Part shown: piece after piece, positions 4,066-60,135 of the stretch
Position numbering within the stretch: position 1 is the first letter of the stretch
Layout: each line of letters starts with the position of its first letter
NCBI GenBank assembly: GCA_963720265.1
Contig: CAVRET010000002.1
Span: 663,601-727,600 of the forward strand
DNA: 64,000 nt
From: an uncultured bacterium
GTDB lineage: Bacteria; Patescibacteriota; Saccharimonadia; UBA4664
Reading direction: 5' to 3'
Notes under the pieces: generated by a model
What the model saw: the letters and a program-made list of their open reading frames with translations, nothing else
What the model was told of the DNA's origin: nothing
Databases searched by the model: none
Program-made: the position numbers and the translations under genes

Positions 4066-4189
4066 CGCGCACTCCGTTCTCCTCTGTCGTCGTTGCGATG
4101 GATATATCTTTACAACATCTTAGTAAACAACGCAACAAGCGCAGCGATCACTAGCCACAACCTCAAAAACCCCTATAATGTAGCCAGTT

Positions 4190-16433: not shown

Positions 16434-16487
16434 GTCTTAAGTATAACCTAAGCGTATAATGAGAGTCGTAATGTTGGAGAAGAAAGT

Positions 16488-26275: not shown

Positions 26276-26331
26276 AACATGGACAACATCCCACATCCCA
26301 CATCCCCAACCCAAGCGGCGGTATAATCTAC

Positions 26332-37226: not shown

Positions 37227-37364
37227 CTATAATGTTAACGCTTATAATAACTGATCATACCTCGCGGAGAATAGCTTTTCTGCCAACTATTGTTTGCCTC
37301 GGCCGCTCAAATTCAGCATATCGTCTAAGCATAAGCACTTCTCGGCATACGGTATAGTAGTCGT

Positions 37365-38405: not shown

Positions 38406-38696
38406 ATGCAAACGGCAACCATAAGAAGGGATATGTTCATGCAACCACGAGACCAGCAGCAACAAGGTCAGGATGACCAGCAGGCCCAGCAACAATTCCA
38501 GCAGGACGACCACCAGCAGGACGACCACAAGCAGGATGACCAGCAGCAGGCCCAGCAATTCCAGCAGGATGACGACCAGCAGGTTGATAGCCAGCAACAG
38601 CAAGGCGACCAGCACGAGCAGCAGCCGCATATGCAACAACAGCAACAGCAGCAGGATGACGACCAGCGTCAGCAGCACGAGCAGCACCAGCAATAA
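38406..38696 (+). CDS. Gln/Asp/His-rich low-complexity small protein (tentative)
   Basis: The ORF is built from CAGCAG/GACGAC-type repeats and encodes a ...QQDDHQQDD... polypeptide. The minus strand encodes a poly-Leu ORF. Confidence 0.3.
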   Translation: MQTATIRRDMFMQPRDQQQQGQDDQQAQQQFQQDDHQQDDHKQDDQQQAQQFQQDDDQQVDSQQQQGDQHEQQPHMQQQQQQQDDDQRQQHEQHQQ

Positions 38697-38763: not shown

Positions 38764-40590
38764 ATGTGCGGTATCATCGCCTACTGTGGCAAACCTGAAC
38801 ATCTCATGCAAGACCTCATGGGCGGACTTAAGCGCCTTGAGTATCGGGGGTATGACTCGGCCGGTGTTGCGGTAATCGCCGGAGACGGCGTGTATGTCAA
38901 AAAAACGCCGGGCAAAATTGCTAAGCTCGAGGAGGCCGTTGGCGCCAAGCCACCAAGCCATCTCGGGCGCGTTGGTATTGCCCACACCCGCTGGGCAACT
39001 CACGGCGCTGCTACCAAGGAAAACGCCCACCCGCACAGATCCGCCGATGGGAATATCTGGCTAGTCCACAACGGCATCATCGAAAACTACTCCACAATCA
39101 AACAGGAGTTACAGGCCAAGGGCATTAAATTTGAGAGCGAAACCGACACCGAAGTGGCTGCCAAGCTTATTGGTGATCTCTACGACGGCGATTTGCTAAA
39201 AGCTGTGTTACGGGCCACTGATCGGCTGCACGGCGCTTTTGCCATGTGTGTTATGGCGGGCAGCGAGCCGGGCCGTCTTATCGGAGTTAAGCAATTTAGC
39301 CCGCTCGTCGTTGGCCTGGACAAAGATGCCATTCTAATAGCGTCCGATGCCAGCGCTGTCATACCTGAGACCAAAAACGTCATTTACCTTAAAGACGGCG
39401 AATTGGTGGACGTCCAAAACGGCACGTACACCATCCACGATTTTAAAGGCGCAGTGCGCACTGAGTTGGTCGCCAAGATCAACTGGGATGCCCAGGCCGC
39501 TACCAAACAAGGCTTCGACCACTACTTGTTAAAAGAAATTATGGAACAGCCCACCGCCGTGCGCGAGACGATCCGTGGCCGGATTATCAGGGATGCGGGC
39601 GAAGTTATGCTGGGCGGGCTGACCGATATCCAGGATCGCCTTGCAAGCATAAATCACATCGTGCTGCTGGGTGTTGGCACCTCGAATTATGCTGCCAAGC
39701 TCGGTGAGCTGTACTTTAACGCACTCACTGGAGTGCCAACCAGTGCCGTCATGTCCCCTGAGTATCGCTATACCGACAATCCCATCGACGAGCACACGTG
39801 GCTCATAGCCGTTTCACAATCCGGCGAAACCGCTGACACTATCGCCGCGATTGAAAAAGCCAAGCATCACGGCGCGCTTGTAACCGGCATTGTCAATGTG
39901 GTGGGCTCGAGTATAGCGCGAATGACCGATGCCGGCGCCTACAACCACATTGGGCCGGAAATTTCGGTCGCCTCCACCAAGGCCTTCACTTCTCAGGCAG
40001 TGCTTTTGCTCTTACACGCGCTGTACTTTGGGCAAGTTCGTGGTAGCACCTCGGCTCTGGCACCGCAACTTCTGCTCGCGCTCGAGCGTCTGCCCGAGGG
40101 GATCGGCCGCCTGCTCGAAGAGTACGGCAGCATCGCCGAGGTAGCAGCCGGACTCAAGAGTTACCACAATCTGCTCTATATCGGCCGCCGCTACAACTAC
40201 CCCGTGGCGCTCGAAGGCGCACTCAAGATCAAAGAAATCGCCTATGTGCACGCCGAAGGCCTCAGCGGTGGTGAGCTAAAGCACGGCTTTATCGCACTCA
40301 TTGATAAAACCATGCCGACCATAGCACTTGCTACTCGCGATTCGGTCACCGACAAGATGCTCGACAACATCCAGGAGGTCAAAGCTCGCGGCGGCCGAGT
40401 GATCGGCATTGCGAGCGCACCAAATGATCTCTTTGATGACACCATAACGGTGCCGGATGTCGGTCCCGAGCTGCTTCAGCCACTGGTCAACAATGTGGCG
40501 TTGCAACTCCTGGCCTATTATTCAGCCAAGCTGCGCGGGCACAACATCGATCAACCGCGCAATCTCGCCAAGAGTGTCACGGTCGAGTAG
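38764..40590 (+). CDS. glmS: glutamine--fructose-6-phosphate aminotransferase
   Basis: N-terminal MCGIIAY with the catalytic Cys2, and two SIS domains. Confidence 0.95.
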   Translation: MCGIIAYCGKPEHLMQDLMGGLKRLEYRGYDSAGVAVIAGDGVYVKKTPGKIAKLEEAVGAKPPSHLGRVGIAHTRWATHGAATKENAHPHRSADGNIWLVHNGIIENYSTIKQELQAKGIKFESETDTEVAAKLIGDLYDGDLLKAVLRATDRLHGAFAMCVMAGSEPGRLIGVKQFSPLVVGLDKDAILIASDASAVIPETKNVIYLKDGELVDVQNGTYTIHDFKGAVRTELVAKINWDAQAATKQGFDHYLLKEIMEQPTAVRETIRGRIIRDAGEVMLGGLTDIQDRLASINHIVLLGVGTSNYAAKLGELYFNALTGVPTSAVMSPEYRYTDNPIDEHTWLIAVSQSGETADTIAAIEKAKHHGALVTGIVNVVGSSIARMTDAGAYNHIGPEISVASTKAFTSQAVLLLLHALYFGQVRGSTSALAPQLLLALERLPEGIGRLLEEYGSIAEVAAGLKSYHNLLYIGRRYNYPVALEGALKIKEIAYVHAEGLSGGELKHGFIALIDKTMPTIALATRDSVTDKMLDNIQEVKARGGRVIGIASAPNDLFDDTITVPDVGPELLQPLVNNVALQLLAYYSAKLRGHNIDQPRNLAKSVTVE

Positions 40591-42019: not shown

Positions 42020-43249
42020 TTATGCTTGCCCGATCCCAGATGCAATCGCGGGTTGTGGCTGAGCCGGCGCGCGGGCCGACAACACTTCCAATACACTCGA
42101 AGCCGATGCGCTCCAGTTGCCGTCTGCGTCCCGAGCCCGCACTTGCAGCGTATAGGAACCAGGGTTCAGGGGAGAGACAATTGAAGCCGACAGGCCGGCC
42201 TCCGATACTTGCATTGGTATGCCGCCGCCGGCGCTTGGATCCTTCGCGCCAAAATACTCGCCTTCAACTGCCGGAGACCCACGGCCGAGTAGCGGCACTG
42301 TTAAAGTCGTCGGTGCACCACTCACAACCGGGTTGGCCGACCATACCGGCTGCCCGAGCTCCGGCGACATTTGCCGCATATGCACGACGATTTCGTCACT
42401 GGGCAAGCCCTCCGCGCCTGCCGCGCTGGCGGTCACGCAGTAGCGATGGGAACCGGAGCGGACGGTGGTGTCAACAAAACTCGTGCCGCTAGATCCGCCC
42501 AGCGCAAGCCCATCACGGTAAATGTAGTAGGCTTGTGCTTCCGGCACCGGCAGCCAGACCAACGTCAGCGTTTGTGTAACAGAGGCGGCCGCAAGCTTCA
42601 TAGGGGCTGCAATTGCCGGAGCCGGCACCGGTGCGGTTGCGGGGCCGCTGACGGGCTGAGCTGTCGGCGTCCCCATCAAGGCCTCACGCCTGCCCAGAAT
42701 AATAGCCACAAATAAGGCGTTGACGAGCAGAATGTCGATCGGGGAGGCAATCGCCGTAATCCTAAGATCCGTTGCGGCCAGAAGCGCGGCTAACCCACTG
42801 ACCGAACTCAAGAAAAACGTTGACCAGGTTTCCTCAAACGGCTTTTGCCACATATGTTTAATCGTTGGCAACGAGCCGATAAGATCCACAATCACGGACG
42901 CCAGCACTGCCATGGCAGGGGAGTTAAACCACCACCACAACCCCAGCCCGACCAAAGCTCCGATCAGACATACAACGTCGAAGCTTGCGATCGCGAGAAT
43001 TCCCGCCATCATCAGCCCGAGCACTGCGATCGTCAGAGTTTCGACCGTTTCGCTCGCGGTCAGCACCGCACTTGCGTACTGGTGATCGCTAAAAGATGCC
43101 GCCGCTGCCAGGCCGGTTAGCAGCGACCACACCAGCCACGTCACAACCCTGGGCTTGGTCTTCTGCGCCCAAACATCTCGCAAGTACGGCACGCCAGCCC
43201 CCAAGGTCAACGCGCTACTTACGACAATAAGTATCGTCCTGATTAGCAA
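42020..43249 (-). CDS. membrane protein with an N-terminal polytopic domain and C-terminal FN3/Ig-like repeats
   Basis: About eight TM helices, then a Pro/Ala linker and two beta-sandwich-like repeats. Confidence 0.5.
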   Translation of the reverse strand: MLIRTILIVVSSALTLGAGVPYLRDVWAQKTKPRVVTWLVWSLLTGLAAAASFSDHQYASAVLTASETVETLTIAVLGLMMAGILAIASFDVVCLIGALVGLGLWWWFNSPAMAVLASVIVDLIGSLPTIKHMWQKPFEETWSTFFLSSVSGLAALLAATDLRITAIASPIDILLVNALFVAIILGRREALMGTPTAQPVSGPATAPVPAPAIAAPMKLAAASVTQTLTLVWLPVPEAQAYYIYRDGLALGGSSGTSFVDTTVRSGSHRYCVTASAAGAEGLPSDEIVVHMRQMSPELGQPVWSANPVVSGAPTTLTVPLLGRGSPAVEGEYFGAKDPSAGGGIPMQVSEAGLSASIVSPLNPGSYTLQVRARDADGNWSASASSVLEVLSARAPAQPQPAIASGIGQA

Positions 43250-43320
43250 ATCTCACCCTTCTTATCCGCATTATATCAACTAAGCATAGGCGTTATACAG
43301 CAGTCTGGTATACTGCGCTC

Positions 43321-43980
43321 ATGATACGGGCCGCAATCTTCGATATGGACGGCTTACTCGTGGACAGCGAGCCGCTTTGGAGGCAAGCCGAAACCAAGGT
43401 TTTTCGTGACCTCGGTGTGCCAATCACCACGAAAAGCGCGGCCGAAACCACGGGTCTGCGCACCGATCAAACAGTGCATTACTGGTATGAGCGCTATCCC
43501 TGGAAAGACACAACTGAGGCAGAGGTAGGCAGCCGCATTGACCAAACGGTACTTGAACTAATCCGCCGGCTGGCAATACCAAAAGTTGGCGTTCACGAGG
43601 CCATCACAGCCTGCCGGGAGCTGGATCTCGCGATTGCCCTGGCGTCATCGTCGTCACCGGATATTATTACAGGTGTTGTCACAAAGCTGGGGCTCGAACA
43701 CGAGTTTAGGGCTACGCATTCAGCCGAAGCCGAGGTCTACGGCAAACCCAACCCGGCGGTCTACCTTGATACAGCCAAGAAGCTGGGCCTAGCTCCCGAG
43801 GTCTGCGTAGCACTCGAAGATTCGCTCAACGGTGTGATTTCAGCCAAGTCTGCCGGAATGTATTGCATCGCTGTACCTGACGCTTCGGAGCGCGACCACC
43901 CGCAATTTAGCATTGCCGATAGGGTGGTGGATTCACTGCTTGAAGTCACACCCGCACTCATTCGGAGCCTCACGCGCTAA
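43321..43980 (+). CDS. HAD-superfamily hydrolase (beta-phosphoglucomutase-like)
   Basis: N-terminal DMDGLLVDSE (DxDG). Confidence 0.75.
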   Translation: MIRAAIFDMDGLLVDSEPLWRQAETKVFRDLGVPITTKSAAETTGLRTDQTVHYWYERYPWKDTTEAEVGSRIDQTVLELIRRLAIPKVGVHEAITACRELDLAIALASSSSPDIITGVVTKLGLEHEFRATHSAEAEVYGKPNPAVYLDTAKKLGLAPEVCVALEDSLNGVISAKSAGMYCIAVPDASERDHPQFSIADRVVDSLLEVTPALIRSLTR

Positions 43981-44015
43981 TGCCCGTGGTCGTCACAGCG
44001 GAACCACCGGCCGGT

Positions 44016-45413
44016 TCACGAGTCCGTATCACGTATCGGCGCCACCAGCGGTTCTCGTTCAAACAGCTCGGATAGAAAATTATTGGTCCACCAAAACACG
44101 TCTTGTTGTCGCACATTCGCCAGCAGCGAATTCCAGCGCCGGCCCTGCTCCGGCAGTCGCATATGCAAAGCGTGCCTGAGGCCGCGCGCAATATCATCGA
44201 CATTAGCAGGGTTAACCAAGACGGCATCGTGCAGTTGCCAGGCCGCACCAATGGTTTTGCTAAGGACCACGGCGCCCAGTTTCGCTCCGCGAGCCGCAAT
44301 ATATTCTTTTACCATCAAATTCATCCCGTCCATGATGGGCGTCACCAAAAACACATCCGCCATCCGATACAAGGCATTAAGCTCTTCAAAGCCATGGCTA
44401 CGGTATTCCAGTGACACGGGAGTAATGCCCAGCCGCTTCCGGTAGCCTGCGTTGATTCGCGCCACTTCCTGTTCAATCTGATCCTTCAACAACCGGTATT
44501 CCGACAAATCCTCGCGCGACGGCGCCACCACCATGTGATACTCCAACTTGCCGGCCGGGTAATGTTCCAGCACCTTTTCCACACCTTGCAGCTGCTGGAT
44601 AATCCCCTTTGTGTAATCAAGCCGCGACGCCGATAAGATCAATCTCGCATCCGCCGATTTGAGTAGTCGTAGTTGCTTGAGGTAGGCGATAACTTCACGC
44701 TGCCTGCCGGCTGATCGGTACGTCTTGTAATCAATACCAATCGGGAACGCCTTCACTGTAGCGCCTGGCTTAGGTTCAATGCCGGTGGCCTTGAGGCAGT
44801 CATTAAAATTACGCACATCACGTTCGGTCTGAAAGCCCAGCACATCAACCACACTCAAACTTTCCAACAACGGCCGGTGGTGCTTCCATTGCAAAAACAC
44901 CGCCGCTGTCGGAAACGGGGTGTGCAGGAAAAAGCCGATGCGGTTGCGAATTCCACGTTCACGCAAAACCCGCGGCAGCAATTGTAAATGGTAATCATGG
45001 ATCCAAATCACATCGCCGGCCTGGAGGTTGGCCTCCACGGCATTGGCAAATAAGTTGATGACCTCCCGGGTCGCTTTCCAATCCGCTTCTTGGTCGAGCT
45101 TGGCCGGCTTAATGCCGTGGAAAAGCGGCCACAACACACCGTTGGACAACCGGTTGTAATAGCGTGTAAGTTGGCGTTTCGAAATCAACACTGGTATCAA
45201 AAGATCTGGGAAGTTGAGCTGCAACAACTGCTGTTTGGTGAGCCGTTGCCAGGTGCCCGGCCACCCAATCCACAGCATTGGATGGCTACTCATGACCGAA
45301 CCCAAAGCTGTCGCTAAACCGCCGAGGCTGCGTTTGAGCACGAGTTCCCCGGCTTCATGCGTAATGTTAACCGGCAAGCGGTTTGACACTACTACTATCC
45401 GTGTTTTTGACAT
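44016..45413 (-). CDS. otsA: alpha,alpha-trehalose-phosphate synthase
   Basis: Glycosyltransferase family 20 blocks: IVVVSNRLP, WIHDYHLQLLP, GFFLHTPFP. Confidence 0.85.
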   Translation of the reverse strand: MSKTRIVVVSNRLPVNITHEAGELVLKRSLGGLATALGSVMSSHPMLWIGWPGTWQRLTKQQLLQLNFPDLLIPVLISKRQLTRYYNRLSNGVLWPLFHGIKPAKLDQEADWKATREVINLFANAVEANLQAGDVIWIHDYHLQLLPRVLRERGIRNRIGFFLHTPFPTAAVFLQWKHHRPLLESLSVVDVLGFQTERDVRNFNDCLKATGIEPKPGATVKAFPIGIDYKTYRSAGRQREVIAYLKQLRLLKSADARLILSASRLDYTKGIIQQLQGVEKVLEHYPAGKLEYHMVVAPSREDLSEYRLLKDQIEQEVARINAGYRKRLGITPVSLEYRSHGFEELNALYRMADVFLVTPIMDGMNLMVKEYIAARGAKLGAVVLSKTIGAAWQLHDAVLVNPANVDDIARGLRHALHMRLPEQGRRWNSLLANVRQQDVFWWTNNFLSELFEREPLVAPIRDTDS

Positions 45414-45449
45414 ATACTTATCAGCCTCAACACATTACCGTGGGCAAGT

Positions 45450-46211
45450 ATGGACAGCAGACTAACAGGGCACTATGTACAAAGTCACAAGCGGTTACTG
45501 TTGTTTGACTACGATGGCACCTTGGTCAATTTTCACCGCGTCCCAGAAAAGGCTACGCCAACGGAAAGACTAATGCAAGTACTGCGACGGTTGTGCGCCG
45601 ACCCTCACAACCAAGTGGTAATTATTTCCGGCCGCGATCGGCATTTTCTCGATCGTTATTTTGCCAAACTACCGCTCGCACTAACGGCCGAGCACGGTTA
45701 CCTGGTGCGTGATAAAGTCGGAGTCTGGCGTGAAACTAAAACCCAGCCGCCACACTGGAAGCCAATAATTCGTCGTGAACTGGACGAGGCTGCTCGCGAC
45801 CTGCCCGGTGTCAAGCTCGAAGAAAAAGCCTCATCGCTGGTTTGGCATTTCGACGGCGCGACTGACGAAGCGGCCTGTGCGGTCGTGGCGGCCGATTTGC
45901 GTGAACGACTTAGGCCCCAGCTCGACCAGCTCGGTCTTGTCGCCGAAAGCGGCCGTAAAATCCTCGAGGTCCGGATTGCAGGAGTAACGAAAGGTCATAT
46001 TGCGCGCCGGTGGCTTGACGCTGCGCCCTGGGATTTTGTGCTGGCCGCCGGCGATGACACAACCGACGAAACCATGTTTGCAGAACTACCACCCGGCGCC
46101 TTTAGCATCAAAGTGAGGCCCGGCGCCACCGCTGCCCGCTATCACCTCGCCGACGCTGCAGCCATGCTCGTCCTGCTCGAAGGCCTCACGGCATCGGCGC
46201 CAACCCCATAG
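45450..46211 (+). CDS. otsB: trehalose-6-phosphate phosphatase
   Basis: HAD motif LLLFDYDGTLV. It is adjacent to and divergent from otsA. Confidence 0.75.
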   Translation: MDSRLTGHYVQSHKRLLLFDYDGTLVNFHRVPEKATPTERLMQVLRRLCADPHNQVVIISGRDRHFLDRYFAKLPLALTAEHGYLVRDKVGVWRETKTQPPHWKPIIRRELDEAARDLPGVKLEEKASSLVWHFDGATDEAACAVVAADLRERLRPQLDQLGLVAESGRKILEVRIAGVTKGHIARRWLDAAPWDFVLAAGDDTTDETMFAELPPGAFSIKVRPGATAARYHLADAAAMLVLLEGLTASAPTP

Positions 46212-47870: not shown

Positions 47871-49259
47871 ATGCCGAACCCAAATCTTTCCGATCTCAGG
47901 CGCGATATCGAGAGTCAGCGCGCCACTTTTGAGCAGCGCTTGAGCCGGCTCGTGGCCGTACCGACGGTGAGCGCCGACCCAGCCCATCTGCCTGACATCA
48001 GGCGCGGTGCCGAGCTCGCGGTTGAGCTATTACAAAACGCCGGGCTCCAGGCCGAATCCGTTCAGACTGCCGGCAATCCGGTTGTGGTCGGGCGTCTGGT
48101 GCAAAACCCCGGCTTTCCCGCAATTACGCTCTATAATCATCTCGACGTACAGCCGGCCGACGCGACGGCCTGGGAGACTCCGCCATTTGATCTCAGCATC
48201 CACGACGGCCGCTATATCGGCCGCGGCGCCACCGACGACAAGGGCCCGGCGCTGACAATGCTCATGGCAGTCGAATACGCCCTCGCGCATCGCCTCCCGC
48301 TGAATTTCAACATCATTTGGGAACTGGAAGAGGAGCTTGGTAGCCCGCACTTCGAAGCCTTTATGCAGGCTCATACCTCGAGACTGGCCTGCGATGTGGC
48401 CGTGGTCTCAGATACCATGTGGATTTCCAACAAGCACCCGGCTATTTCGTATGGCCTGCGCGGCCTTATTACCTTTGAATTGAGCTTACGGACAGCCGAA
48501 GAAGAGGCGCATTCCGGTACGGTGGGTGGCGTCGCCCGTAACCCAATCAGTGAGCTCGCCCAGGCCATTAGCGAGTGCTATGACGCGACCACCGGCCGCG
48601 TTCTGATTCCCGGGTTCTACGATAACGTCCGCTCCGCTTCAGCTGCCGAGCTCGAAGAATTTGTGCGTTCCGGATTTGATGTCGACCAATTTGCCAAAGT
48701 TCACAAACTCCTAAAACTGCGCACGCGCGAAACCAAAGCAGTCCTGTCACGCATTATGGCCGAGCCCACCTTTGAGGTACACGGCCTGGTTGGCGGCTAT
48801 ACTGGGCCGGGCATTAAAACCGTGGTACCTCCGAACGCTACTGCCAAACTAAGTACACGTCTCGTGCCAAACCAGGATCCCGAGGCCATCTTTAGGCTTA
48901 TTAAAACCTTTACTACCGATCGCCATCCCGATATTCAGGTAAAACTCGAAGCCGGCGCTGGGCCGTATCTCGGCGACGTTGATGGACCGTATATGCAAGC
49001 GGCTCGAGCGGCCATGCGAGCAAGCTTTGGAGTCGAGCCGGCTTTAGTGCGCGAGGGCGGCTCGATCGGTGCTGTGCTCTCGCTGCAGCGACATCTCAAA
49101 GTTCCAGTTATTATGCTTGGGCTCAGCCTGCCGGAACACGGCTATCACGCCCCGGGAGAAAACTTTGATTGGCACCAAGCTGCAGGCGGCACAGCCATGT
49201 TTGTAGACTATTTCCAAGCCGTGACAGATATGCAGCCTAGAAACCACAAACTATCTTGA
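47871..49259 (+). CDS. M20-family metallopeptidase/dipeptidase
   Basis: HLDVQPA, GRGATDDKG, and metal-binding blocks. Confidence 0.75.
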   Translation: MPNPNLSDLRRDIESQRATFEQRLSRLVAVPTVSADPAHLPDIRRGAELAVELLQNAGLQAESVQTAGNPVVVGRLVQNPGFPAITLYNHLDVQPADATAWETPPFDLSIHDGRYIGRGATDDKGPALTMLMAVEYALAHRLPLNFNIIWELEEELGSPHFEAFMQAHTSRLACDVAVVSDTMWISNKHPAISYGLRGLITFELSLRTAEEEAHSGTVGGVARNPISELAQAISECYDATTGRVLIPGFYDNVRSASAAELEEFVRSGFDVDQFAKVHKLLKLRTRETKAVLSRIMAEPTFEVHGLVGGYTGPGIKTVVPPNATAKLSTRLVPNQDPEAIFRLIKTFTTDRHPDIQVKLEAGAGPYLGDVDGPYMQAARAAMRASFGVEPALVREGGSIGAVLSLQRHLKVPVIMLGLSLPEHGYHAPGENFDWHQAAGGTAMFVDYFQAVTDMQPRNHKLS

Positions 49260-49319
49260 ATATAGTCATCGATACGCGTACCATAAGCATTAACAATAAC
49301 GTAAAGAAAGGAACGAAGC

Positions 49320-49469
49320 ATGGCTGACCACGACCACGATCACGACCACGATCGCGAACAGCACATTCATGTCCACGTCCACGTCCACTTGCACGATGAC
49401 GACCGTCATCACAGTGATCACGATCACCACGACCATGACCACGACCGCGAAGAAGAGCACCACGACTAA
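49320..49469 (+). CDS. 49-aa His/Asp-rich peptide (candidate metal-binding)
   Basis: Manual translation gives MADHDHDHDHDREQHIHVHVHVHLHDDDRHHSDHDHHDHDHDREEEHHD. A purine-rich SD, AAAGAAAGGAACG, lies upstream. It is not in the ORF track because it is under 60 aa. Confidence 0.4.
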   Translation: MADHDHDHDHDREQHIHVHVHVHLHDDDRHHSDHDHHDHDHDREEEHHD

Positions 49470-49534
49470 GTCGTAAACGCCTCATAATACGGGGCGTTAT
49501 TCGTGCAGAAAAAGGGCAGCCTAGCTGCTCTTTT

Positions 49535-49900
49535 TTAAAATTCTTTAAACACTAGTTCGTCGGCGATAAAGAACTTGCGCGTAAATTCCACCGCCTTATG
49601 CGGTTCAAACGGCTTGCAAGTGTAGATATCCGCACTAAAAAATAGCCGAGGATGATGCTCGTTCCAGGCGTAAAAATGTGCACCGGAAGTCTCCCAGTGA
49701 GTCCAACCGGCCCAGCCGAAACGACTACTCCGGTTTGTTACGGGCTTAATGAGCGGGGTCATATCAAGTACATCCGATAATTCGGTCAGATAGTCCTTAA
49801 TTTGTTTATCAGTTATAGAAGCCGACGGGAAACCTTCAATGACTAGTCTCTGTCGGAAAATATCCGGCGCAATATCGCGATAGTTCGACAATAGATTCAT
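49535..49900 (-). CDS. speH: S-adenosylmethionine decarboxylase proenzyme (SpeH-type, class 1)
   Basis: ETSGAHFYAWNEHH ... ADIYTCKPF parallels the ESHISIHTWPE ... VDVFTCG blocks of SpeH. Confidence 0.55.
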   Translation of the reverse strand: MNLLSNYRDIAPDIFRQRLVIEGFPSASITDKQIKDYLTELSDVLDMTPLIKPVTNRSSRFGWAGWTHWETSGAHFYAWNEHHPRLFFSADIYTCKPFEPHKAVEFTRKFFIADELVFKEF

Positions 49901-49967
49901 CCTTTCTATATAAGCATAGGGCCTATATAAATCATATCAAAGCGGTATAGTAAGTATAGTAAGCAAT

Positions 49968-51650
49968 ATGCCAATCACCCGTCCGACCGCCGCACCTGGT
50001 CCACATTACAAGTGGATCGCACTATCCAATACCACGCTCGGCATGCTCATTGCCACGCTCAACGCCACGAGCCTCATTATCGCCCTGCCGGTAGTGTTTC
50101 GAGGCCTCGGAATTAACCCGCTTGATGCCGGGAGCTTTGACTATCTGCTGTGGATACTAATGGGCTATATGCTGGTTACGGCCGTGTTTGTGGTAACGCT
50201 CGGCCGGCTTGGCGACATCTACGGTCGCGTCAAGCTCTACAACCTCGGCTTTGTCGTTTTCACTCTCGGCGCGCTCGGGGCAGCGGCAACCTGGAGTCAC
50301 GGCAATGCCGGCGCGCTTGAGCTCATTATTATGCGTATGATACAAGCCGTGGGCGGCGCCATTCTTATGGCCAATTCCGCCGCCATCCTCACCGACGCCT
50401 TTCCTCACAATCAACGCGGCATGGCGCTTGGTATTAACCAAATCGCCATGCTGGCCGGCTCATTCCTGGGCATTCTGGCCGGCGGTATCCTAAGCCAGTT
50501 TTCCTGGCGCTGGGTATTTTTCTTTAATGTACCGATCGGACTTGCTGGCGCCGTTTGGTCGTACATTGCGCTCAGAGAAATCGATCATCCCAAGCCGGCC
50601 AAAATTGACATACTCGGTAATCTCACGTTTGCCGTCGGCCTGGCCATGCTGTTGATCGGTATCACCTACGGCATTCGGCCGTATCGTTCACATCCAATGG
50701 GCTGGTCCAGCCCATTCGTACTCGCCATGATTGCCTTCGGTCTGCTTGCCCTCTGCCTATTCGTGGTTGTGGAGCGGCGGGCAGCCGAGCCGATGTTTAA
50801 TCTCGGGCTGTTTCGGATTCGTGCCTTTACGGCCGGCAATATTGCCGGACTACTGGCGGCCGTTGGTCGCGGGGGCCTGCAATTTATGCTCATTATGTGG
50901 TTGCAGGGGATTTGGCTGCCGCTGCACGGCTACGCCTTCGCGCAGACCCCACTGTGGGCCGGCATTTACATGCTACCAACGACGCTCGGATTCCTCATCG
51001 CAGGGCCCTTGTCTGGTTATCTGTCTGACCGCTACGGCGCCCGCCCTTTCGCCACCGGCGGCATGCTGCTCGCAGCTGTCAGTTTTGCACTTATGATGAC
51101 GCTGCCGGTTAACTTTCCGTACCCGGCCTTTGCCGGCATTCTAGTGCTCAACGGCCTGTCTTTCGGCCTGTTTAGCTCGCCCAACACGGCCGGCATCATG
51201 AACTCAGTACCGGCACAGTTTCGGGGCGCCGCATCAGGCATGCGGGCAACCTTTCAAAACGTTGGTTTGCCCCTGTCCATCGGCATCTTTTTCACCCTCA
51301 TGATTAGCGGGCTGTCGACCCAAGTGCCAAAAGCGCTATACACCGGCCTCACCACCAACGGGGTAGCTCCGGCTCTAGCCGGGCAGCTCTCGCATCTGCC
51401 GGCCATAAGCTACTTGTTCGCGGCTTTCTTGGGCTACAATCCGCTCAAAAACCTGCTCGGGCCGCAGGTTTTGGGCGCACTGCCGTCGGCCGAAGCCGCC
51501 CGGCTGACATCCAAACAATTCTTTCCCACGCTCATCGGTGCACCGTTTAAGCACGGGCTCACGATCGTATTAACCTTTGCTATAATTGCCTGCCTCATTG
51601 CCGCGGTCGCCAGCTGGTTGCGTGGTGGCAAATACGTTCGTCAAGCCTAA
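49968..51650 (+). CDS. MFS transporter (14-TMS drug:H+ antiporter-like)
   Basis: 14 TM helices with a GRLGDIYGRVK MFS motif. Confidence 0.8.
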   Translation: MPITRPTAAPGPHYKWIALSNTTLGMLIATLNATSLIIALPVVFRGLGINPLDAGSFDYLLWILMGYMLVTAVFVVTLGRLGDIYGRVKLYNLGFVVFTLGALGAAATWSHGNAGALELIIMRMIQAVGGAILMANSAAILTDAFPHNQRGMALGINQIAMLAGSFLGILAGGILSQFSWRWVFFFNVPIGLAGAVWSYIALREIDHPKPAKIDILGNLTFAVGLAMLLIGITYGIRPYRSHPMGWSSPFVLAMIAFGLLALCLFVVVERRAAEPMFNLGLFRIRAFTAGNIAGLLAAVGRGGLQFMLIMWLQGIWLPLHGYAFAQTPLWAGIYMLPTTLGFLIAGPLSGYLSDRYGARPFATGGMLLAAVSFALMMTLPVNFPYPAFAGILVLNGLSFGLFSSPNTAGIMNSVPAQFRGAASGMRATFQNVGLPLSIGIFFTLMISGLSTQVPKALYTGLTTNGVAPALAGQLSHLPAISYLFAAFLGYNPLKNLLGPQVLGALPSAEAARLTSKQFFPTLIGAPFKHGLTIVLTFAIIACLIAAVASWLRGGKYVRQA

Positions 51651-53593: not shown

Positions 53594-55204
53594 ATGGACA
53601 CAAATTGGTTTGCCAACGCCATAATCTATGGAGTTAATATTCCCACGTTCCAAGACTCGAACGGCGACGGCATCGGCGACATTGCCGGCCTCACCAGCCG
53701 CCTCGATTATTTGGCCGATCTGGGGGTGACGTGTCTGTGGCTGCTGCCCTTTTATCCCAGCCCACGCCGCGACAACGGGTATGATGTGTCGCACTACTAC
53801 GGAGTCGACCCGCGGCTCGGCACGCTCGATGATGTCCGCGAGCTGGCCGCACAGGCCAAGGCCCGCGGCATTCGCCTCATGACCGACTTAGTGGTTCACC
53901 ACACCTCGGATCGCCACCCCTGGTTTGAAGCTGCCAAATCCGACCGCCACTCGTCCTATCGTGATTATTACATCTGGAGTGACGAGCGCCCGGAAGAAGA
54001 GGAAGAGCCAAACTTTCCAGAGGCGGAATCGGGCATGTGGCGCTACGAGCCGATTTCACGCTCGTATTATCATCATGCGTTCTATCATTTCCAGCCTGAC
54101 CTTAACTTCGCCAACACGCGCGTCCAGGAGGAGGTATTGCGCATCATGGACTTTTGGCTGGCACTCGGTGTATCCGCTTTCCGGCTCGATGCCGCCCCGC
54201 TTATCATCGGTCGCAAAGGCTTGCCCGGCACCGAGGTTGAGCCGAGCCAATTTTGGAACCGCATCAGGGCCTGGCTCAGCCATCGCAACCCCCAGGCCGC
54301 ACTCATGGCCGAGGCCAACATTCCAATGGAGGAGATCAACAAGTATGTGAACGACGGCCGTGGCATTCATATGTTTCTCAACTTCTGGACCAATCAGACC
54401 ATTATCTATGCTCTCGCCGCCGGCCGTGCCGATCCCGTCATCGGCACGCTCAAGGAGCTACCGATACTTCCGAGTGGAGCGCAATACGTTACATTCTTGC
54501 GCAACCTGGACGAGCTCAACATCGCACGCCTGAGCGAAAGCGAGCAGCAGCTGGTATACAAAAAGTTCGGTCCCAGGAAAAATATGCAAATCTACCATCG
54601 CGGCATCAGACGCCGGCTCGCACCCATGCTCAAGGGCAATGGGCGTCGGCTGCGGCTCGCCTTTAGTCTCATGTTCGCCATGCCCGGGGCGCCCATGATC
54701 GTCTACGGCGACGAGATCGGTATGGGTGAAAATTTGATGCTCACCGAGCGCGATAGCGTGCGGACGCCCATGCAATGGAACAGCTCAGATCAGGCCGGCT
54801 TTTCTCCTGCTGAGTCCAGTCACATGATTCACCGCATGGTCACCAACCCGGGCTACCATTTTCGTACCGTGAACGTCGCCGACCAGCAAGCCGACCCCAA
54901 CTCACTCTGGCACTTTATGAAGCGGCTCATTGCCACCCGCAAAGATTGCCCGGCCATCGGCGAAGGTACATTTTCGCAGCTCGACTGCGGTGACCCGGCC
55001 GTCTTAGCGATAGGCTACACCAACAAGCACCGGTTGGTTGTAGTGCACAATTTGTCCGCCCAGTCAAAAACAGTCTCGCTTCCAATCGGGATCAAGCTCC
55101 AGGCACTAACTGAAATCTTGAGCGATCGGCCGTACGGGCCGCTCCATGCCGGTAAACTTAAGCTTGGGCCATACGGCTTTCGGTGGCTGTATGGCGAGCG
55201 CTAG
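53594..55204 (+). CDS. GH13 alpha-amylase-family enzyme, trehalose synthase (TreS)-like
   Basis: FQDSNGDGIGDIAGLTSRLDYLADLGVTCLWLLP, DLVVHHTSDRHPWF, and GFRLDAA. Confidence 0.75.
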   Translation: MDTNWFANAIIYGVNIPTFQDSNGDGIGDIAGLTSRLDYLADLGVTCLWLLPFYPSPRRDNGYDVSHYYGVDPRLGTLDDVRELAAQAKARGIRLMTDLVVHHTSDRHPWFEAAKSDRHSSYRDYYIWSDERPEEEEEPNFPEAESGMWRYEPISRSYYHHAFYHFQPDLNFANTRVQEEVLRIMDFWLALGVSAFRLDAAPLIIGRKGLPGTEVEPSQFWNRIRAWLSHRNPQAALMAEANIPMEEINKYVNDGRGIHMFLNFWTNQTIIYALAAGRADPVIGTLKELPILPSGAQYVTFLRNLDELNIARLSESEQQLVYKKFGPRKNMQIYHRGIRRRLAPMLKGNGRRLRLAFSLMFAMPGAPMIVYGDEIGMGENLMLTERDSVRTPMQWNSSDQAGFSPAESSHMIHRMVTNPGYHFRTVNVADQQADPNSLWHFMKRLIATRKDCPAIGEGTFSQLDCGDPAVLAIGYTNKHRLVVVHNLSAQSKTVSLPIGIKLQALTEILSDRPYGPLHAGKLKLGPYGFRWLYGER

Positions 55205-56861
55205 GCATGAGCATCACTATTTTCGCGGCCGGGTTGTATACCAGATCTATCCGCGCAGTTTCCAGGATTCGAACGGCGATGGCATTGGTGATCTGGCCGG
55301 CATCATAAGCCGGCTGGACTATCTTAATGACGGTCACCCGGCCGCCGCCACCTCGCTCGGCGTCAACATGATTTGGCTGTCGCCGTTTTATCCCTCGCCT
55401 ATGGCCGATTTCGGCTATGATGTGTCGGATTATTGCAATGTCGATCCCATTTTCGGCACGCTGGCCGACTTCAAACTGCTGGTGAAAGAATCTCACCGTC
55501 GCGGTATAAAACTCATGATCGACTTCGTGCCCGACCACTCATCCAATCAGCATCCATGGTTTCTCGAATCGCGTAAAAGCCGTAAAAACCCCCGCCGCCA
55601 CTGGTACTATTGGCGTGATCCTGCGCCGGGTGGTGGGCCGCCCAACAATTGGCTCAGCGTCTTCGGCGGTTCGGCCTGGGAGCTTGATCCAACAACTGGC
55701 CAATACTACCTCCACAGCTTTCTCAAGGAGCAGCCGGATCTCAATTGGGAAAACTCAGGAATGCGTGCCGCCATGCTCGAGGCCATCCGTTTTTGGCTTA
55801 AATTGGGCGTAGACGGCATCCGCGTGGACGCGGTTGATTGGATGGCCAAAGATCTCAAATTCCGTGACAACCCGGTAAATCCCAATTACCGCGCAGGCAT
55901 CGGCGACCCCTATCACCGATTTCTCCACCGTTACAGCCAAAACGGCCCCCAGCTCTACCATTATTTGCGCGCTATGGCCGAGGTTGTGCGAGAGTCGCCC
56001 TACGGCTTCATGGTTACCGAAACCTACCCCGAGCGCCGTGACATCGTGCAAGAGTACCGCAAGATCTACCGCAATTACCTTGCCAGCGTCTCGGCGCCGT
56101 TCAACTTCGAACTCCTGCACTTGCCCTGGTCGGCCGCCGCCTTTAAACAGTTCATTGATCGCTATCAAGCCTCACTCGAGCATGATTATGTGCCCATCTA
56201 CGTGCTCGGCAACCACGACACCGCGCGCCTGGCCAGCCGCATCGGGCCGGCTGCGGCCCGCACCGCCGCTACCATGCTCTTAACCTTGCCCGGCGCAGCC
56301 TTCATTTACTACGGCGAAGAACTCGGCCTACAAAACGTTGCGATTCCGCCCGAGCGCGTCCAGGATCCGTTTGAAAAGCGCGTGCCGGACCTTGGCCTCG
56401 GCCGCGATCCGGAACGCACGCCGATGCCGTGGACGGGTAGTATCCACGCCGGGTTCTCGACCGCCCAGCCGTGGTTGCCGCTTGGTCCCGGTTACCGTAC
56501 CCATAACGTTGCAAGCCAGCTCAGCGACCCAGCCTCGAGCCTACACCTGTACCAAAAGCTCATTCATTTGCGCAACACGTCGCCGATTCTGCAGTATGGT
56601 GTCTATCGTCCGCTCGACACTCATCACTGCGACGTCTTTGGCTACGTGCGTGAACACAACGGCTTCGAGCTGGCAATCGTGCTCAACTTCTCCGGCCGCA
56701 CCGCTGCCATTACCACCGACCTCGGCCCCGGGCTACTCATGTACTCGTCGCAATTAGCTCGCGAAGGCGTGCTCATCAACCTCGCGCGCACCACGATTCC
56801 ACCATATGAAGGCTATGTCGTGGCGCTTGAACGGCGCGATCAAGCGGGCAACCAGTCATGA
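55191..56861 (+). CDS. GH13 alpha-glucosidase/oligo-1,6-glucosidase-like enzyme
   Basis: FQDSNGDGIGDLAGIISRLDYL, DFVPDHSSNQHPWF, and GVDGIRVDAV. The start ATG 55191 overlaps the upstream gene's end by 14 nt. Confidence 0.75.
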   Translation: MASARHEHHYFRGRVVYQIYPRSFQDSNGDGIGDLAGIISRLDYLNDGHPAAATSLGVNMIWLSPFYPSPMADFGYDVSDYCNVDPIFGTLADFKLLVKESHRRGIKLMIDFVPDHSSNQHPWFLESRKSRKNPRRHWYYWRDPAPGGGPPNNWLSVFGGSAWELDPTTGQYYLHSFLKEQPDLNWENSGMRAAMLEAIRFWLKLGVDGIRVDAVDWMAKDLKFRDNPVNPNYRAGIGDPYHRFLHRYSQNGPQLYHYLRAMAEVVRESPYGFMVTETYPERRDIVQEYRKIYRNYLASVSAPFNFELLHLPWSAAAFKQFIDRYQASLEHDYVPIYVLGNHDTARLASRIGPAAARTAATMLLTLPGAAFIYYGEELGLQNVAIPPERVQDPFEKRVPDLGLGRDPERTPMPWTGSIHAGFSTAQPWLPLGPGYRTHNVASQLSDPASSLHLYQKLIHLRNTSPILQYGVYRPLDTHHCDVFGYVREHNGFELAIVLNFSGRTAAITTDLGPGLLMYSSQLAREGVLINLARTTIPPYEGYVVALERRDQAGNQS

Positions 56862-56887
56862 CATCGGTGCTCAGTAACAGGTTGCGG

Positions 56888-59356
56888 CTAAACTGACATC
56901 CGCCCAAGCGCAGCCAGCACATCGACCCCTGCTCCGAGCACGCCTTGCCACAAATCGCCAACCTTGTCGAGACGCTCCGGCATGGTTCTGAGAGTAAACG
57001 CTTTCGGATCGAGCCGCTCATTCACCTCGCCCCAATCAAGCGGCGTCGACACCGTCGCCCCGGGCACCGGCCGCACGCAATAGGCCACCGCCATGGTCTG
57101 CCCGTGCCCGTTTTGCAAGTAGTCCAGGTAAATTTTGCCCTTGCGCTTATCTGGACTGCGCTCAACGCTCGTCAGCTCGGGCAATCGGCTGTGCAGCAAA
57201 TTCATAATAATCTCGGCCAACTGTTTGCTCTGCTCATACGTATAATTGGCACCCAGCGGAATGCAAACGTGCAGACCCGTCTTGCCGCTTGTCTTGGGAT
57301 AGGCCGGAATCTCATATTCATCAAGCAGCTTATGGGCCGCCATGGCTACTTTCACCACTGCATCAAACCCGCTGGTTTTGGCATCAATATCGAGTAGGCA
57401 ATAATCCGGCCGGCCGAGATTCTGCGTGCACGAGTGCCATGGGTTGAGCTCGATGCAGCCTAAATTAACTAAATATTCCAGAACATCGCGGTCATTGGCC
57501 ACCACCCAACGAATGTCCTTGTTACTCGATTCTGAGTATATTGGCACCGTCTTCACCCAATGCGGCGCCCCTTCCACGTCCTTTTGGAAAAAATGCTGGC
57601 CGCTAATGCCACCGGGATAACGGTTGAGTGATTCGGGTCGGTCTTTGAGATAGGGCAGTAACACCTCACTCACACGATCGTAATAATCCAGCAAATCGCC
57701 CTTGGTAATGCCCTCATCAGGCCAAAATACTTTGTCGCGGTGAGTAATGTGTGCTCGGCTATCCGGCTGATCAGTCTTCGCGCCGGATTTGTATTCCGCA
57801 GCGGCCTGCGGCAATTCGCGTCGCACGTCACGAGCCGACTTGTCTTCGCGCCAACCCACAAAAATCGGTTGTCGCATATGATCGTCCTGCGTCCAGCCGG
57901 CAAAACTCACCTCCGCCACCAATTCTGGCTTCACCCAATGTACTGGCGCGTTGGTTCGAAAGCTTGTCGCAAACGGCGAGGCTTTGCGCTCGAGCGGCTT
58001 CAGCCGGGCATGCGCCTCGGCGAGCGACTGTTCTGTAAACCCGCCACCGGTATGCCCAATGTAGCGCAGCTGGCCGTCCTCGCCGTACAACCCGAGCACT
58101 AGTGCGCCCAGGTCATGCCGGCTGCCCTTCGGCTCAGTGTAGCCGCCTACCACAGCCTCTTGTCGGGCATGGGTCTTGATTTTGAGCCAATCCCGGCTGC
58201 GTTTGCCATCCTGATATGTGCTTACGGCGGATTTAGCCATAATGCCCTCCAGATTCTGCGCCTGAGCCAATGCAAACAGCCTTTTCCCAACGCCGGCCAC
58301 ATGATCGCTCAGGCGCACCCGCGTAAACGGCGCCACTAGCTGCGCCAGCACCTCCTTGCGCCGCGTAAGCGGCCAACCGCGTAAATCGTGCCCGTAGGCA
58401 TACGGCAAATCGAACACATAATACACGAGCGTGCCGCTGCCGGTCCGCTGCCAGTCCTGCAACGCGCCGAAATCCGACCGGCCGGCCTCGTCCACCACGA
58501 CCATTTCACCGTCCAAGATGGCATCCACGACCAGGCCGGACAGCTCCTTGGCCACTAACTGGTACCGCTCTGTGTAATCCTGATCACCGCGAGTGATAAG
58601 CCGCACTCGGCCACCTCCCACATGCGCCATAATCCGGTAGCCGTCCCATTTCACCTCATACAACCACTCCGGATCGTCAAACGGCGTTTCCCTGAGTGTC
58701 GCCAGCATTGGCGCCAACTCCGCCGGCGCCTGAGCCCTGGGTGCATCGTCAAAATCCTGCACAACCGGCTTCCCAGCCGCAATCTCCTCCAGCGTCCGGC
58801 CTGTGGCTGCACTCCGGTTACGCTGCGTCACATCCTCGTCCCGCGCCCACTGGTCTTTCTCGGCTTTAATCAGTAGCCAAGCATTCTCCTCGGCGTCCTT
58901 CATTTTCACCAACGCAAATTCGCCGTTCAACTTCTGCCCGTGCAAAATAAACGTCAAATGCCCGGCATGCACACCGGCCCGGGCTTTTTTATCATCCTCC
59001 TCGCGGTCGCCGGTAGCGCCGAGTGGCTCGTACGTACCTTCATCCCATACCATGACCGTACCACCGCCGTAATTGCCTTTGGGGATCGTACCCTCAAACG
59101 TCCGGTAATCGAGCGGATGATCCTCGACCATCATGGCAAGTCGCTTGTCCTCGGGCCTCAGTGACGGGCCTTTGGGCACGGCCCAGCTCTTGAGTGCGCC
59201 GCCCATCTCCAGTCGAAAATCATAATGCAACTGCGACGCGTCATGCTTTTGCACCACAAACCGCAGGCCGCCGCGCTCATCGCTCTGATCATCGCCGCCG
59301 GTCGGCTCGGGCGTCGTGTCAAACGTACGTTTCGACTGGTACTTGTCCAAACTCAC
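56888..59356 (-). CDS. ligD: multidomain ATP-dependent DNA ligase LigD (3'-phosphoesterase - ligase - polymerase/primase)
   Basis: The N-terminal PE domain has VVQKHDASQLHYDFRLE. The middle ligase domain has the EVKWDGYR motif I. The C-terminal Pol domain has SGKTGLHVCIPL. Confidence 0.9.
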   Translation of the reverse strand: MSLDKYQSKRTFDTTPEPTGGDDQSDERGGLRFVVQKHDASQLHYDFRLEMGGALKSWAVPKGPSLRPEDKRLAMMVEDHPLDYRTFEGTIPKGNYGGGTVMVWDEGTYEPLGATGDREEDDKKARAGVHAGHLTFILHGQKLNGEFALVKMKDAEENAWLLIKAEKDQWARDEDVTQRNRSAATGRTLEEIAAGKPVVQDFDDAPRAQAPAELAPMLATLRETPFDDPEWLYEVKWDGYRIMAHVGGGRVRLITRGDQDYTERYQLVAKELSGLVVDAILDGEMVVVDEAGRSDFGALQDWQRTGSGTLVYYVFDLPYAYGHDLRGWPLTRRKEVLAQLVAPFTRVRLSDHVAGVGKRLFALAQAQNLEGIMAKSAVSTYQDGKRSRDWLKIKTHARQEAVVGGYTEPKGSRHDLGALVLGLYGEDGQLRYIGHTGGGFTEQSLAEAHARLKPLERKASPFATSFRTNAPVHWVKPELVAEVSFAGWTQDDHMRQPIFVGWREDKSARDVRRELPQAAAEYKSGAKTDQPDSRAHITHRDKVFWPDEGITKGDLLDYYDRVSEVLLPYLKDRPESLNRYPGGISGQHFFQKDVEGAPHWVKTVPIYSESSNKDIRWVVANDRDVLEYLVNLGCIELNPWHSCTQNLGRPDYCLLDIDAKTSGFDAVVKVAMAAHKLLDEYEIPAYPKTSGKTGLHVCIPLGANYTYEQSKQLAEIIMNLLHSRLPELTSVERSPDKRKGKIYLDYLQNGHGQTMAVAYCVRPVPGATVSTPLDWGEVNERLDPKAFTLRTMPERLDKVGDLWQGVLGAGVDVLAALGRMSV

Positions 59357-60135
59357 TTGACCTGCGCCTCCAAGCTCGCTTTAAGTGCGGCCATCAGATC
59401 GGCCGGAGCTTTGGCCGTCGCTTCGTGCGGCGCTGCTTTCTCCTTACCCTTCGCCTTAGCCTCGATCCGTGCCTGCAGCTCCTCAGTATAGGTATCGTGA
59501 AAATCCTCAGGGATAAACGGTTGCGTTTGCTGATCGACCAGCTCAACGGCCAGGTCGAGTTCACGCTCATTCGCTACATCTTTTCCCGGTAACGTAAGGC
59601 TGCCCGGGGTACGCAAATCAGCCGGGAACCGCATTTGGTTTAGCACGAGCACCTGGCCCACAGTCTTCAAAATCGCCAAATGTTCCCGTTCGCGCAGCAC
59701 AAACGTTGCCACCGCCAGTCGATTCCGCTTACGCAAAGCCTCGCGCAAAAGCGCATATGCTTTCTCGCCGCCCTTGCCCGGCTCCAGATAGTATGGCCGT
59801 TCCAAATACCGCACATCAATCTGCTGCTCGTCGCAAAACTCCACAATATCAATCGTCGTCGTTTTCTTTACGTCCGCGGCTTCGAAGTCCTCGTCCGTAA
59901 TTCGCACAAATTCGCCTTTCTCGTATTCGTAACCCTTAACGATCTCGCTAAACGGCACCTCTTTGTCCTCGGCTTTGCAGATCTTGGCATAGCGAATGGG
60001 GGACAGGTCTTTTTTGTGTAACATGTGCAAATCAATCCCGTCGCGCGTCTCCGCGCCGGAATAGAGCTTCACCGGAATATTAATAAGCCCAAACGAGATT
60101 GCCCCAGACCAGATCGCGCGCATTGCATCCTCCAA
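59353..60135 (-). CDS. ku: Ku protein (non-homologous end joining)
   Basis: MRAIWSGAISFGLINIPVKLY is the canonical Ku N-terminus. Its 4-nt overlap with ligD suggests operon organisation. Confidence 0.9.
   Translation of the reverse strand: MEDAMRAIWSGAISFGLINIPVKLYSGAETRDGIDLHMLHKKDLSPIRYAKICKAEDKEVPFSEIVKGYEYEKGEFVRITDEDFEAADVKKTTTIDIVEFCDEQQIDVRYLERPYYLEPGKGGEKAYALLREALRKRNRLAVATFVLREREHLAILKTVGQVLVLNQMRFPADLRTPGSLTLPGKDVANERELDLAVELVDQQTQPFIPEDFHDTYTEELQARIEAKAKGKEKAAPHEATAKAPADLMAALKASLEAQVK

Follow-up and report, generated by a model that had tools for sequence, protein, structure and literature searches.

A candidate small gene for a His/Asp-rich, possibly metal-binding peptide in an uncultured bacterium of the Saccharimonadia

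Gastric Helicobacter species possess Hpn and Hpn-2 (Hpn-like), cytoplasmic proteins of 60-72 aa that lack a signal peptide and consist of nearly half His. Both serve to store and buffer nickel, and they are confined to a narrow lineage with no homologues elsewhere (PMC4671568). A repeat of His and Asp has been described as the Ni/Co binding site of the efflux pump RcnA (YohM) in a Salmonella passage study, where an (HD)9 block of 54 nt, a multiple of 6, was lost during passage (PMC6760104). In addition, disordered stretches rich in His, Asp and Glu are found in metallochaperones, including the N-terminus of HypB, the C-terminus of SlyD, UreE, CooJ and the inserts of COG0523 proteins, where they bind multiple Ni or Zn ions and deliver metal to a partner enzyme (PMC12284835, PMC3323870, PMC2770081). 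The affinity of such repeats is known from the model peptide Ac-HDHDHDHDH-NH2, with Kd values of 1.8e-7 M for Zn(II), 6.3e-6 M for Fe(II) and 8.4e-5 M for Mn(II) (PMC11938343).

Here we describe an ORF that encodes a free-standing peptide of comparable composition. It is located in a stretch of 64,000 nucleotides from an uncultured bacterium (Patescibacteriota; Saccharimonadia; UBA4664), the whole of which is referred to as the window. The ORF (49320..49469, + strand) comprises 49 codons from an ATG start to a TAA stop (49467..49469), and its product would be MADHDHDHDHDREQHIHVHVHVHLHDDDRHHSDHDHHDHDHDREEEHHD, with 19 His, 14 Asp, 4 Glu, 3 Arg and no Cys. The original prediction had reported an ORF with 19 His and 14 Asp in 49 residues at this position, and it is present exactly as claimed. 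Across 21 long ORFs of the window, only 2.8% of codons specify His and 5.2% Asp, so the composition of the peptide is far from what would be expected by chance. The predicted mass is 6.16 kDa, the pI 5.5 and the GRAVY value -2.39; the N-terminus is not hydrophobic and there is no signal peptide. When modelled from the single sequence with AlphaFold2, the apo-peptide had no secondary structure (pLDDT 67.5, pTM 0.18), as expected for such sequences, and it is predicted to be disordered.

The peptide is built from an N-terminal arm, a central stretch, a DDDRHHS linker, a second arm (DHDHHDHDHD-R-E-E-E) and a final HHD. Specifically, the N-terminal arm (DH)4-D-R-E (49326..49358, +) lies on a (GACCAC)4.3 array plus a 12-nt CACGACCACGAT unit and departs from the repeat consensus by GAT for GAC, which is synonymous, and by one CGC (Arg). 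The central segment H-I-H-V-H-V-H-V-H-L-H (49362..49394, +) lies on a (GTCCAC)3 array and strictly alternates between His and an aliphatic residue, a pattern which, judged from the alternation and not from a structural model, would suit an amphipathic beta-strand. The C-terminal arm (DHDHHDHDHD-R-E-E at 49416..49454, +) duplicates the N-terminal arm within the peptide: both close with HDHDRE, and the DNA copy at 49426..49463 is 76% identical to 49327..49364. When the codons of the two arms were paired by eye, as opposed to a computed alignment, they differed only by synonymous third-position C/T changes (GAC/GAT, CAC/CAT) and by one whole-codon indel. The stop codon follows directly 3′ of the last His/Asp residues. 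Tryptic digestion is predicted to release the peptides MADHDHDHDHDR, EQHIHVHVHVHLHDDDR and HHSDHDHHDHDHDR, which are unique and of a length suitable for proteomics.

With its small size, 39% His (against about 40-50% in Hpn and Hpn-2), cytoplasmic-type sequence and lack of a signal peptide, the predicted product resembles the Helicobacter proteins in general character. However, there is no sequence relationship between them, as BLASTP of the peptide against an Hpn sequence returned no alignment at E<=100. Hpn contains His runs, Cys pairs and Gly/Gln. The peptide, by contrast, contains strict dipeptide repeats (His-Asp and His-aliphatic), lacks Cys and is much richer in acidic residues, and neither NikR-type regulation nor a urease or hydrogenase context was visible at the ORF. 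We favour the view, by analogy, that the peptide would be an analogue rather than a homologue of Hpn.

The other described systems differ from the peptide as well. A (His-Asp)n dipeptide repeat is shared with RcnA, but there it forms a cytoplasmic loop of a multi-pass membrane permease, whereas here it belongs to a free-standing, soluble 49-aa peptide with no transmembrane segment; with 49 aa, a GRAVY of -2.39 and no match in Pfam, the peptide is not a permease of the NicO type (PF03824). The tails of the metallochaperones form part of proteins with a GTPase, PPIase or chaperone domain, whereas the ORF carries no attached domain and stands on its own between the TAA at 49302..49304 and the TAA at 49467..49469, with no hydrogenase, urease or COG0523 gene nearby. 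The absence of Cys sets it apart from bacterial metallothioneins (SmtA/BmtA), whose metal-thiolate clusters are rich in Cys. Lastly, the arrangement, in which hairpins and a terminator come after a very short ORF rich in His, is reminiscent of a hisL-type leader. In contrast to such a leader, however, the His codons are not consecutive but interleaved with Asp or Val, and the next gene (49535..49900, -) is convergent. Since no co-oriented gene follows downstream, a his-operon leader or attenuator is excluded; RNA folding revealed no evident anti-terminator pairing, and there was no match to an Rfam leader. If real, the peptide might thus act like Hpn, the tails of HypB, SlyD and UreE or the loop of RcnA, yet be a member of none of these groups, and it would represent a small, His-rich peptide for metal binding that evolved independently, probably out of a microsatellite.

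Searches for relatives were consistent with this isolated position. A phmmer search with the peptide against 1.84 billion (1.84e9) cluster representatives gave 0 matches, a word-indexed HMMER search gave 0 matches at both E<=0.01 and E<=10, and the PDB, Pfam, NCBIfam and PADLOC searches gave no match. The exact peptide is also absent from a collection of 15 billion proteins that does contain, on a 1.1-Mb contig, the M20 protein of this genome, which fits with gene callers not having called the ORF. As homology tools penalise low-complexity sequences, for instance through the composition correction of HMMER, these negatives constitute weak evidence. Nonetheless, as far as sequence comparison reaches, the peptide certainly belongs to no recognisable family. 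In metagenomes, 600 pattern stretches matched in a search with the peptide and 0 were confirmed by tblastn, which may be explained by low-complexity masking. A scan of genome contigs for the H-phi-H-phi pattern returned almost only simple repeats of the (CACCTC)n type among the matches listed. One of these matches, an ORF cut by the contig end in a metagenome-assembled genome of the Acidimicrobiaceae (contig CAJXIS010000347.1, locus L120, 2311..2545, +), reads ...FHIHVHLHHHIHVHLHLHIHIHIHDNDHDHDHDH; among the genome matches listed, only this one joins a His-aliphatic run to an adjoining HD run in the way the window peptide does.

The composition of the peptide stems from three hexamer arrays, which Tandem Repeats Finder placed at 49326..49351 ((GACCAC)4.3), 49371..49388 ((GTCCAC)3) and 49426..49450 ((ACCACG)4.2). 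The proper null model is therefore a simple repeat and not a random sequence. Moreover, the arrays keep four overlapping frames open on both strands, and for this reason an open frame at this position is no evidence for a gene. Besides the His/Asp-rich frame, these are an Arg/Gly-rich ORF of 82 aa (49237..49485, -), a Val-rich ORF of 57 aa with a GTG start (49290..49463, -) and a Thr-rich ORF of 35 aa (49369..49476, +). The 82-aa antisense ORF had been pointed out before; the Val-rich and Thr-rich ORFs had gone unmentioned.

Conceivably, then, the locus is a non-coding, microsatellite-like stretch of hexamers in the 3′ untranslated or intergenic region behind the M20 gene, in which the ATG, the run resembling a Shine-Dalgarno (SD) sequence and the stop codon occur by coincidence. 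We regard this as the main rival explanation, albeit on the unlikely side. It agrees with the shortness and degeneracy of the hexamer arrays, with the frames that stay open in parallel, with the lack of a homologue and with the fact that the peptide was reported by no gene caller. Supporting the same idea, matches to a looser pattern were common in genomes, and closely similar arrays are often found elsewhere in frames that are evidently non-coding or arbitrary. As a control set for arrays of this kind, metagenome contigs were scanned for DHDH followed by HxHxHxH within 31 nt. This yielded 78 matches, against ~0.2 expected by chance when the collection is assumed to hold ~1e12 bases, and most of the 78 arrays lay in frames without a start codon or in implausible GC-rich frames. 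When the 53 arrays judged complete, meaning not cut by a contig end, were considered, 20 had no in-frame start codon at all, and not one had an ATG with an SD sequence within 5 codons of the array start. The array in the window has both. The combination of an ATG, an SD core and an immediate stop, which argues against a mere repeat, was likewise seen in 0 of these 53 control arrays.

The way in which the array has diverged bears on the same question. By-eye classing of the codons that depart from the repeat consensus yielded 8 synonymous changes (GAT five times, CAT three times) and 7 one-step non-synonymous ones, 4 of which specify Glu (GAA three times, GAG once), which leaves the acidic nature of the sequence intact. 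The peptide contains neither Tyr nor Asn, to which the metagenome control arrays most often decay. This predominance of synonymous variation in a by-eye reading speaks against the repeat being non-coding; with about 15 differences that are not independent of one another, the apparent bias towards synonymous sites is only suggestive. The candidate gene most likely arose locally by expansion of a hexanucleotide repeat.

The region upstream of the array contains the signals expected of a translation start. The first in-frame ATG is located 2 codons ahead of the repeat array, and the in-frame TAA mentioned above shuts the frame upstream of it. The SD core AAGGA (49308..49312, +) lies inside a purine run, AAAGAAAGGAACGAAG, 7 nt before the ATG (-12..-8). 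The purine-rich SD of the original prediction is real; a 5-nt SD core at -16..-5 precedes only 48 of the 1968 ATGs in the window (2.4%). Most long genes of the window, however, appear to be leaderless, lacking an SD and carrying a TATAAT-like box 6-12 nt ahead of the ATG, which suggests that leaderless mRNAs may be the rule in this genome. Boxes of the TATAAT/TATAGT/TATACT type with their ends 4-10 nt ahead of the start codon are found, for example, at 4174..4179, 26322..26327, 37353..37358, 43309..43314, 49955..49960 and 16440..16445 (-). Reliance on an SD is therefore not the norm here, and this counts against the ORF as a gene. On the other hand, the nickel superoxide dismutase (NiSOD) gene sodN is preceded by a similar purine-rich leader, GGAGAAGAAAGT-ATG, and SD-led initiation therefore does operate in this organism.

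Signals for transcription flank the ORF as well. A consensus scan detected a promoter-like site, TAGAAA-17-TATAGT (49238..49266, +), which is a pattern match only; its -10-like TATAGT (49261..49266) is positioned directly past the M20 stop and 54 nt upstream of the ORF. Of the 53 occurrences of TATA[AGC]T boxes in the window, 24 lie in the 80 nt preceding a long ORF, an enrichment of ~10-fold. Directly after the stop codon of the ORF, RNA folding placed a small hairpin, AACGCC-loop-GGCGTT (49476..49498, +). This is followed, 39 nt downstream of the ORF, by an intrinsic terminator, GGGCAGC-CTA-GCTGCTC with TTTTTT (49508..49536, +), which is bidirectional and common to the convergent AdoMet_dc-like gene, and of which the T-tract is better on the + than on the - strand. 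A scan found no terminator-like site between the M20 stop (49259) and the ATG of the peptide. As the sole + strand terminator after M20 is thus located 3′ of the ORF, + strand transcripts starting from M20 or from the TATAGT box must cross the ORF, and we therefore infer that it is almost certainly transcribed. An ATG with AAGGA, a -10-like TATAGT and a + strand intrinsic terminator, in other words canonical signals for the initiation of translation and for transcription, are all present at the locus.

A transcript could also function as RNA, either as a small RNA or as a structured 3′ UTR of the M20 mRNA, with the ORF being incidental. The promoter-like box and the terminator do bracket a unit of about 265 nt, and the whole unit, folded as 276 nt, exceeds shuffled sequences in stability (z = -3.4). 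This extra stability is, however, due mainly to two 3′ hairpins, while the repeat body has no convincing structure. Furthermore, no Rfam match was obtained, the best sub-threshold hit having an E-value of 0.73, and an RNA product would leave the SD and ATG at the 5′ end unexplained. We consider this explanation very unlikely.

Still harder to sustain is a gene on the opposite strand, either the Val-rich ORF (49290..49463, -), which might encode a membrane peptide with two segments, or the 82-aa ORF (49237..49485, -). Both frames are open, and the third-position C/T changes of the + strand would appear as conservative Val/Ile/Met changes in the Val-rich frame. Nevertheless, the GTG start of the Val-rich ORF lacks an SD at 5-10 nt (the closest GAGG is 16 nt off), and the 82-aa ORF has no SD either. 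Both are located downstream of the terminator of the convergent gene, with no promoter-like site on the - strand beyond that terminator; the two - strand promoter-like sites of the scan were found at 49913..49974, upstream of the AdoMet_dc-like gene. The only Pfam match was noise (DUF983, E 0.074), and PADLOC returned none. Taken together, we hold an antisense gene to be highly improbable.

The neighbours of the ORF are as stated in the original prediction, namely an M20 metallopeptidase gene (47871..49259, +; PF01546/PF07687) and a gene of the SAM decarboxylase type (49535..49900, -; PF02675, 38 bits). The latter scores above the Pfam threshold, yet reaches only 16.6 bits against the cutoff of 75.65 for the NCBIfam SpeH equivalog, and the usual Glu-Ser self-cleavage motif was not found by eye. 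It may accordingly be a divergent or non-processing paralogue and not a true AdoMetDC, and it is referred to here as AdoMet_dc-like. MFS transporters are also present among the neighbours. The ORF is housed in the gap of 275 nt between these two convergent genes. For the seven other convergent pairs that are clear in the window, the gaps measure 16, 26, 26, 35, 35, 66 and 95 nt, and the 275-nt gap is an outlier in this compact genome, which speaks against a mere repeat as well.

The possibility that the ORF is a severed C-terminal tail of the M20 peptidase, with which it shares the reading frame, was also considered. Three in-frame stops, the SD and the ATG intervene between the two, and residues 7-454 of the M20 protein align end to end to profile positions 3-456 of 458. 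The three stops and the complete alignment exclude this reading. Likewise, a cluster for a RiPP precursor or metallophore, composed of the peptide, the peptidase and the MFS transporter, was unsupported, with no modifying enzymes found.

Together, the SD and ATG, the -10-like box, the terminator, the long gap and the absence of a comparable start in the 53 control arrays speak for a genuine small gene that is transcribed and probably also translated. We judge it somewhat likelier that the ORF is transcribed and translated than that it is not. That it is, in addition, a metal-binding peptide in the cell is a reading to which we give slightly less than even credence. Should the peptide be made, the binding of metal as such would be almost unavoidable, as can be judged by analogy from the dissociation constants of HDHDHDHDH and from the role of the HD repeat of RcnA as a Ni/Co site. 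The proposal that the locus is a small gene in its own right is supported by the start signals, the -10-like box, the terminator, the gap and the controls, whereas the argument from nickel and NiSOD that had accompanied it is not supported.

This nickel argument held that nickel handling is needed because the genome encodes NiSOD. The NiSOD gene itself is genuine: sodN (16488..16883; PF09055, E 1.5e-41) encodes a protein in which a propeptide of 14 residues precedes the nickel hook HCDLPCGVY, and it overlaps the gene for an S26-family (SodX-like) maturation peptidase (16855..17181), together forming an operon (16455..17181, +) that is preceded by a TATAAT box and a 27-nt purine-rich leader. 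However, sodN is 33 kb away from the ORF and has no operator in common with it: when the sodN upstream region and the leader of the peptide were compared, only the purine run AAGAAAG was shared. No nickel transporter or chaperone was present in the annotated parts of the window, and no metal-trafficking genes adjoin the ORF. A metal-responsive operator, which the original prediction had suggested looking for upstream of the ORF, was not recognised when twelve consensus sequences of metal-regulator operators, those for Ni, Zn and Fe among them, were scanned against 49225..49325. The best match was Fur-like (13/19 at 49282..49300); it was equalled in 11 of 500 shuffles and is not significant after 12 tests.

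On the basis of these sequence features, we propose the following course of events. The + strand would be transcribed from the TATAGT promoter of the ORF itself or by read-through from M20, giving a transcript unit of ~265 nt that ends at the terminator at 49508..49536. Translation from the SD-led ATG at 49320 would yield a highly acidic, intrinsically disordered peptide of 6 kDa, in which two (His-Asp)n arms flank the segment where His and aliphatic residues alternate. With its imidazole and carboxylate groups, each chain could then chelate several ions of divalent transition metals (Zn, Ni or Co, possibly Fe or Mn), so that the peptide would serve as a cytoplasmic metal buffer, store or donor, comparable to Hpn in Helicobacter. 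Through its central HIHVHVHVHLH segment the peptide could self-associate in a metal-dependent manner, and the gene would be restricted to its lineage. M20 peptidases are a family of metal-dependent hydrolases, and a functional link between the peptide and its neighbour may be envisaged. As a more speculative extension, which we put forward tentatively and consider doubtful as a whole, the gene could be a de novo, lineage-specific 'metal sponge' derived from a hexanucleotide repeat in the 3′ region of the metallopeptidase gene, of which the product forms oligomers on binding Zn, Ni or Co. It would then be an independent invention of the Hpn solution by an unrelated lineage of bacteria that is poorly sampled, with its capacity for metal possibly tuned by repeat length in the manner of a VNTR.

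A translated peptide might also have a role other than the storage or chaperoning of metal: it might protect against stress as a hydrophilic disordered chain, buffer the pH or supply the ligand in antioxidant complexes based on Mn(II). In line with such roles, the window contains otsA and otsB, two alpha-amylase-family genes, Ku with LigD and NiSOD, as well as a second low-complexity hydrophilic ORF (38406..38696), and the peptide itself has a GRAVY of -2.39 and predicted disorder. The Mn(II) option is further compatible with the weak but measurable binding of Mn(II) by HD peptides (PMC11938343). None of these observations supports the idea directly, however, since the stress genes are neither adjacent to nor co-oriented with the ORF, and at 39% His the binding of Zn, Ni or Co would be expected to outweigh that of Mn. 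We therefore regard a role unrelated to metal storage or chaperoning as improbable, and the storage, buffering or donation of a transition metal as the preferred function of the peptide, if it is made.

If the gene is real, it would provide a second, independently evolved, free-standing poly-His peptide for metal buffering outside Helicobacter, and would show cleanly how a small gene can emerge from a microsatellite, in a lineage of which hardly any relatives have been sequenced. It would further illustrate that low-complexity micro-proteins of this kind systematically escape gene callers and homology tools based on HMMs. If it is a mere repeat, it is a cautionary example.

With regard to the M20 gene, its closest relatives in the collections are 62-69% identical. 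A search of genome contigs based on M20, in which the source genus is absent, revealed no related locus, and none of the seven homologues that were fetched (58-69% identity) had a His-rich ORF near M20, their neighbourhoods not being conserved. One of these seven (L125, 6121..7591; JGI 3300077828, contig Ga0668520_000505; M20 62% identical) has the same divergent MFS/M20 pair as the window, followed by genes for a FUR-family regulator and a ZIP transporter, and the intergenic region of the latter two carries the palindrome TTGCGAAAAATTTGCAA, which resembles a Fur/Nur/Zur box. This association did not recur in the other six M20 loci, and the TTGCGAAAAATTTGCAA box is absent from the window, including the surroundings of the peptide. 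Since the FUR/ZIP link is confined to one of seven loci, it is only a lead towards zinc.

Several other features of the window were observed in passing. The 96-aa Gln/Asp-rich low-complexity ORF at 38406..38696 (+; MQTATIRRDMFMQPRDQQQQGQDDQQAQQQFQQDDHQQDD...) has no Pfam match and rests on a 15-nt (5-codon) tandem repeat (38498..38596) in a 424-nt gap upstream of glmS (38764..40590). It may encode a further hydrophilic micro-protein that has escaped annotation, or else belong to the glmS leader as a repeat. The regions 42020..46211 and 53594..60135 hold otsA and otsB (trehalose-6-P synthase and phosphatase), the two alpha-amylase-family enzymes, and Ku with a three-domain LigD (NHEJ), and would appear, from their gene content, to be a cluster of stress and desiccation-type functions. 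Finally, the leucyl-tRNA synthetase encoded at 4190..7588 (+; 1132 aa) has a NUDIX domain (PF00293, residues 544-676) between its editing/catalytic and anticodon-binding parts, which is an unusual insertion, and its gene is followed by stand-alone NUDIX genes at 7588..8115 and 9778..10461.
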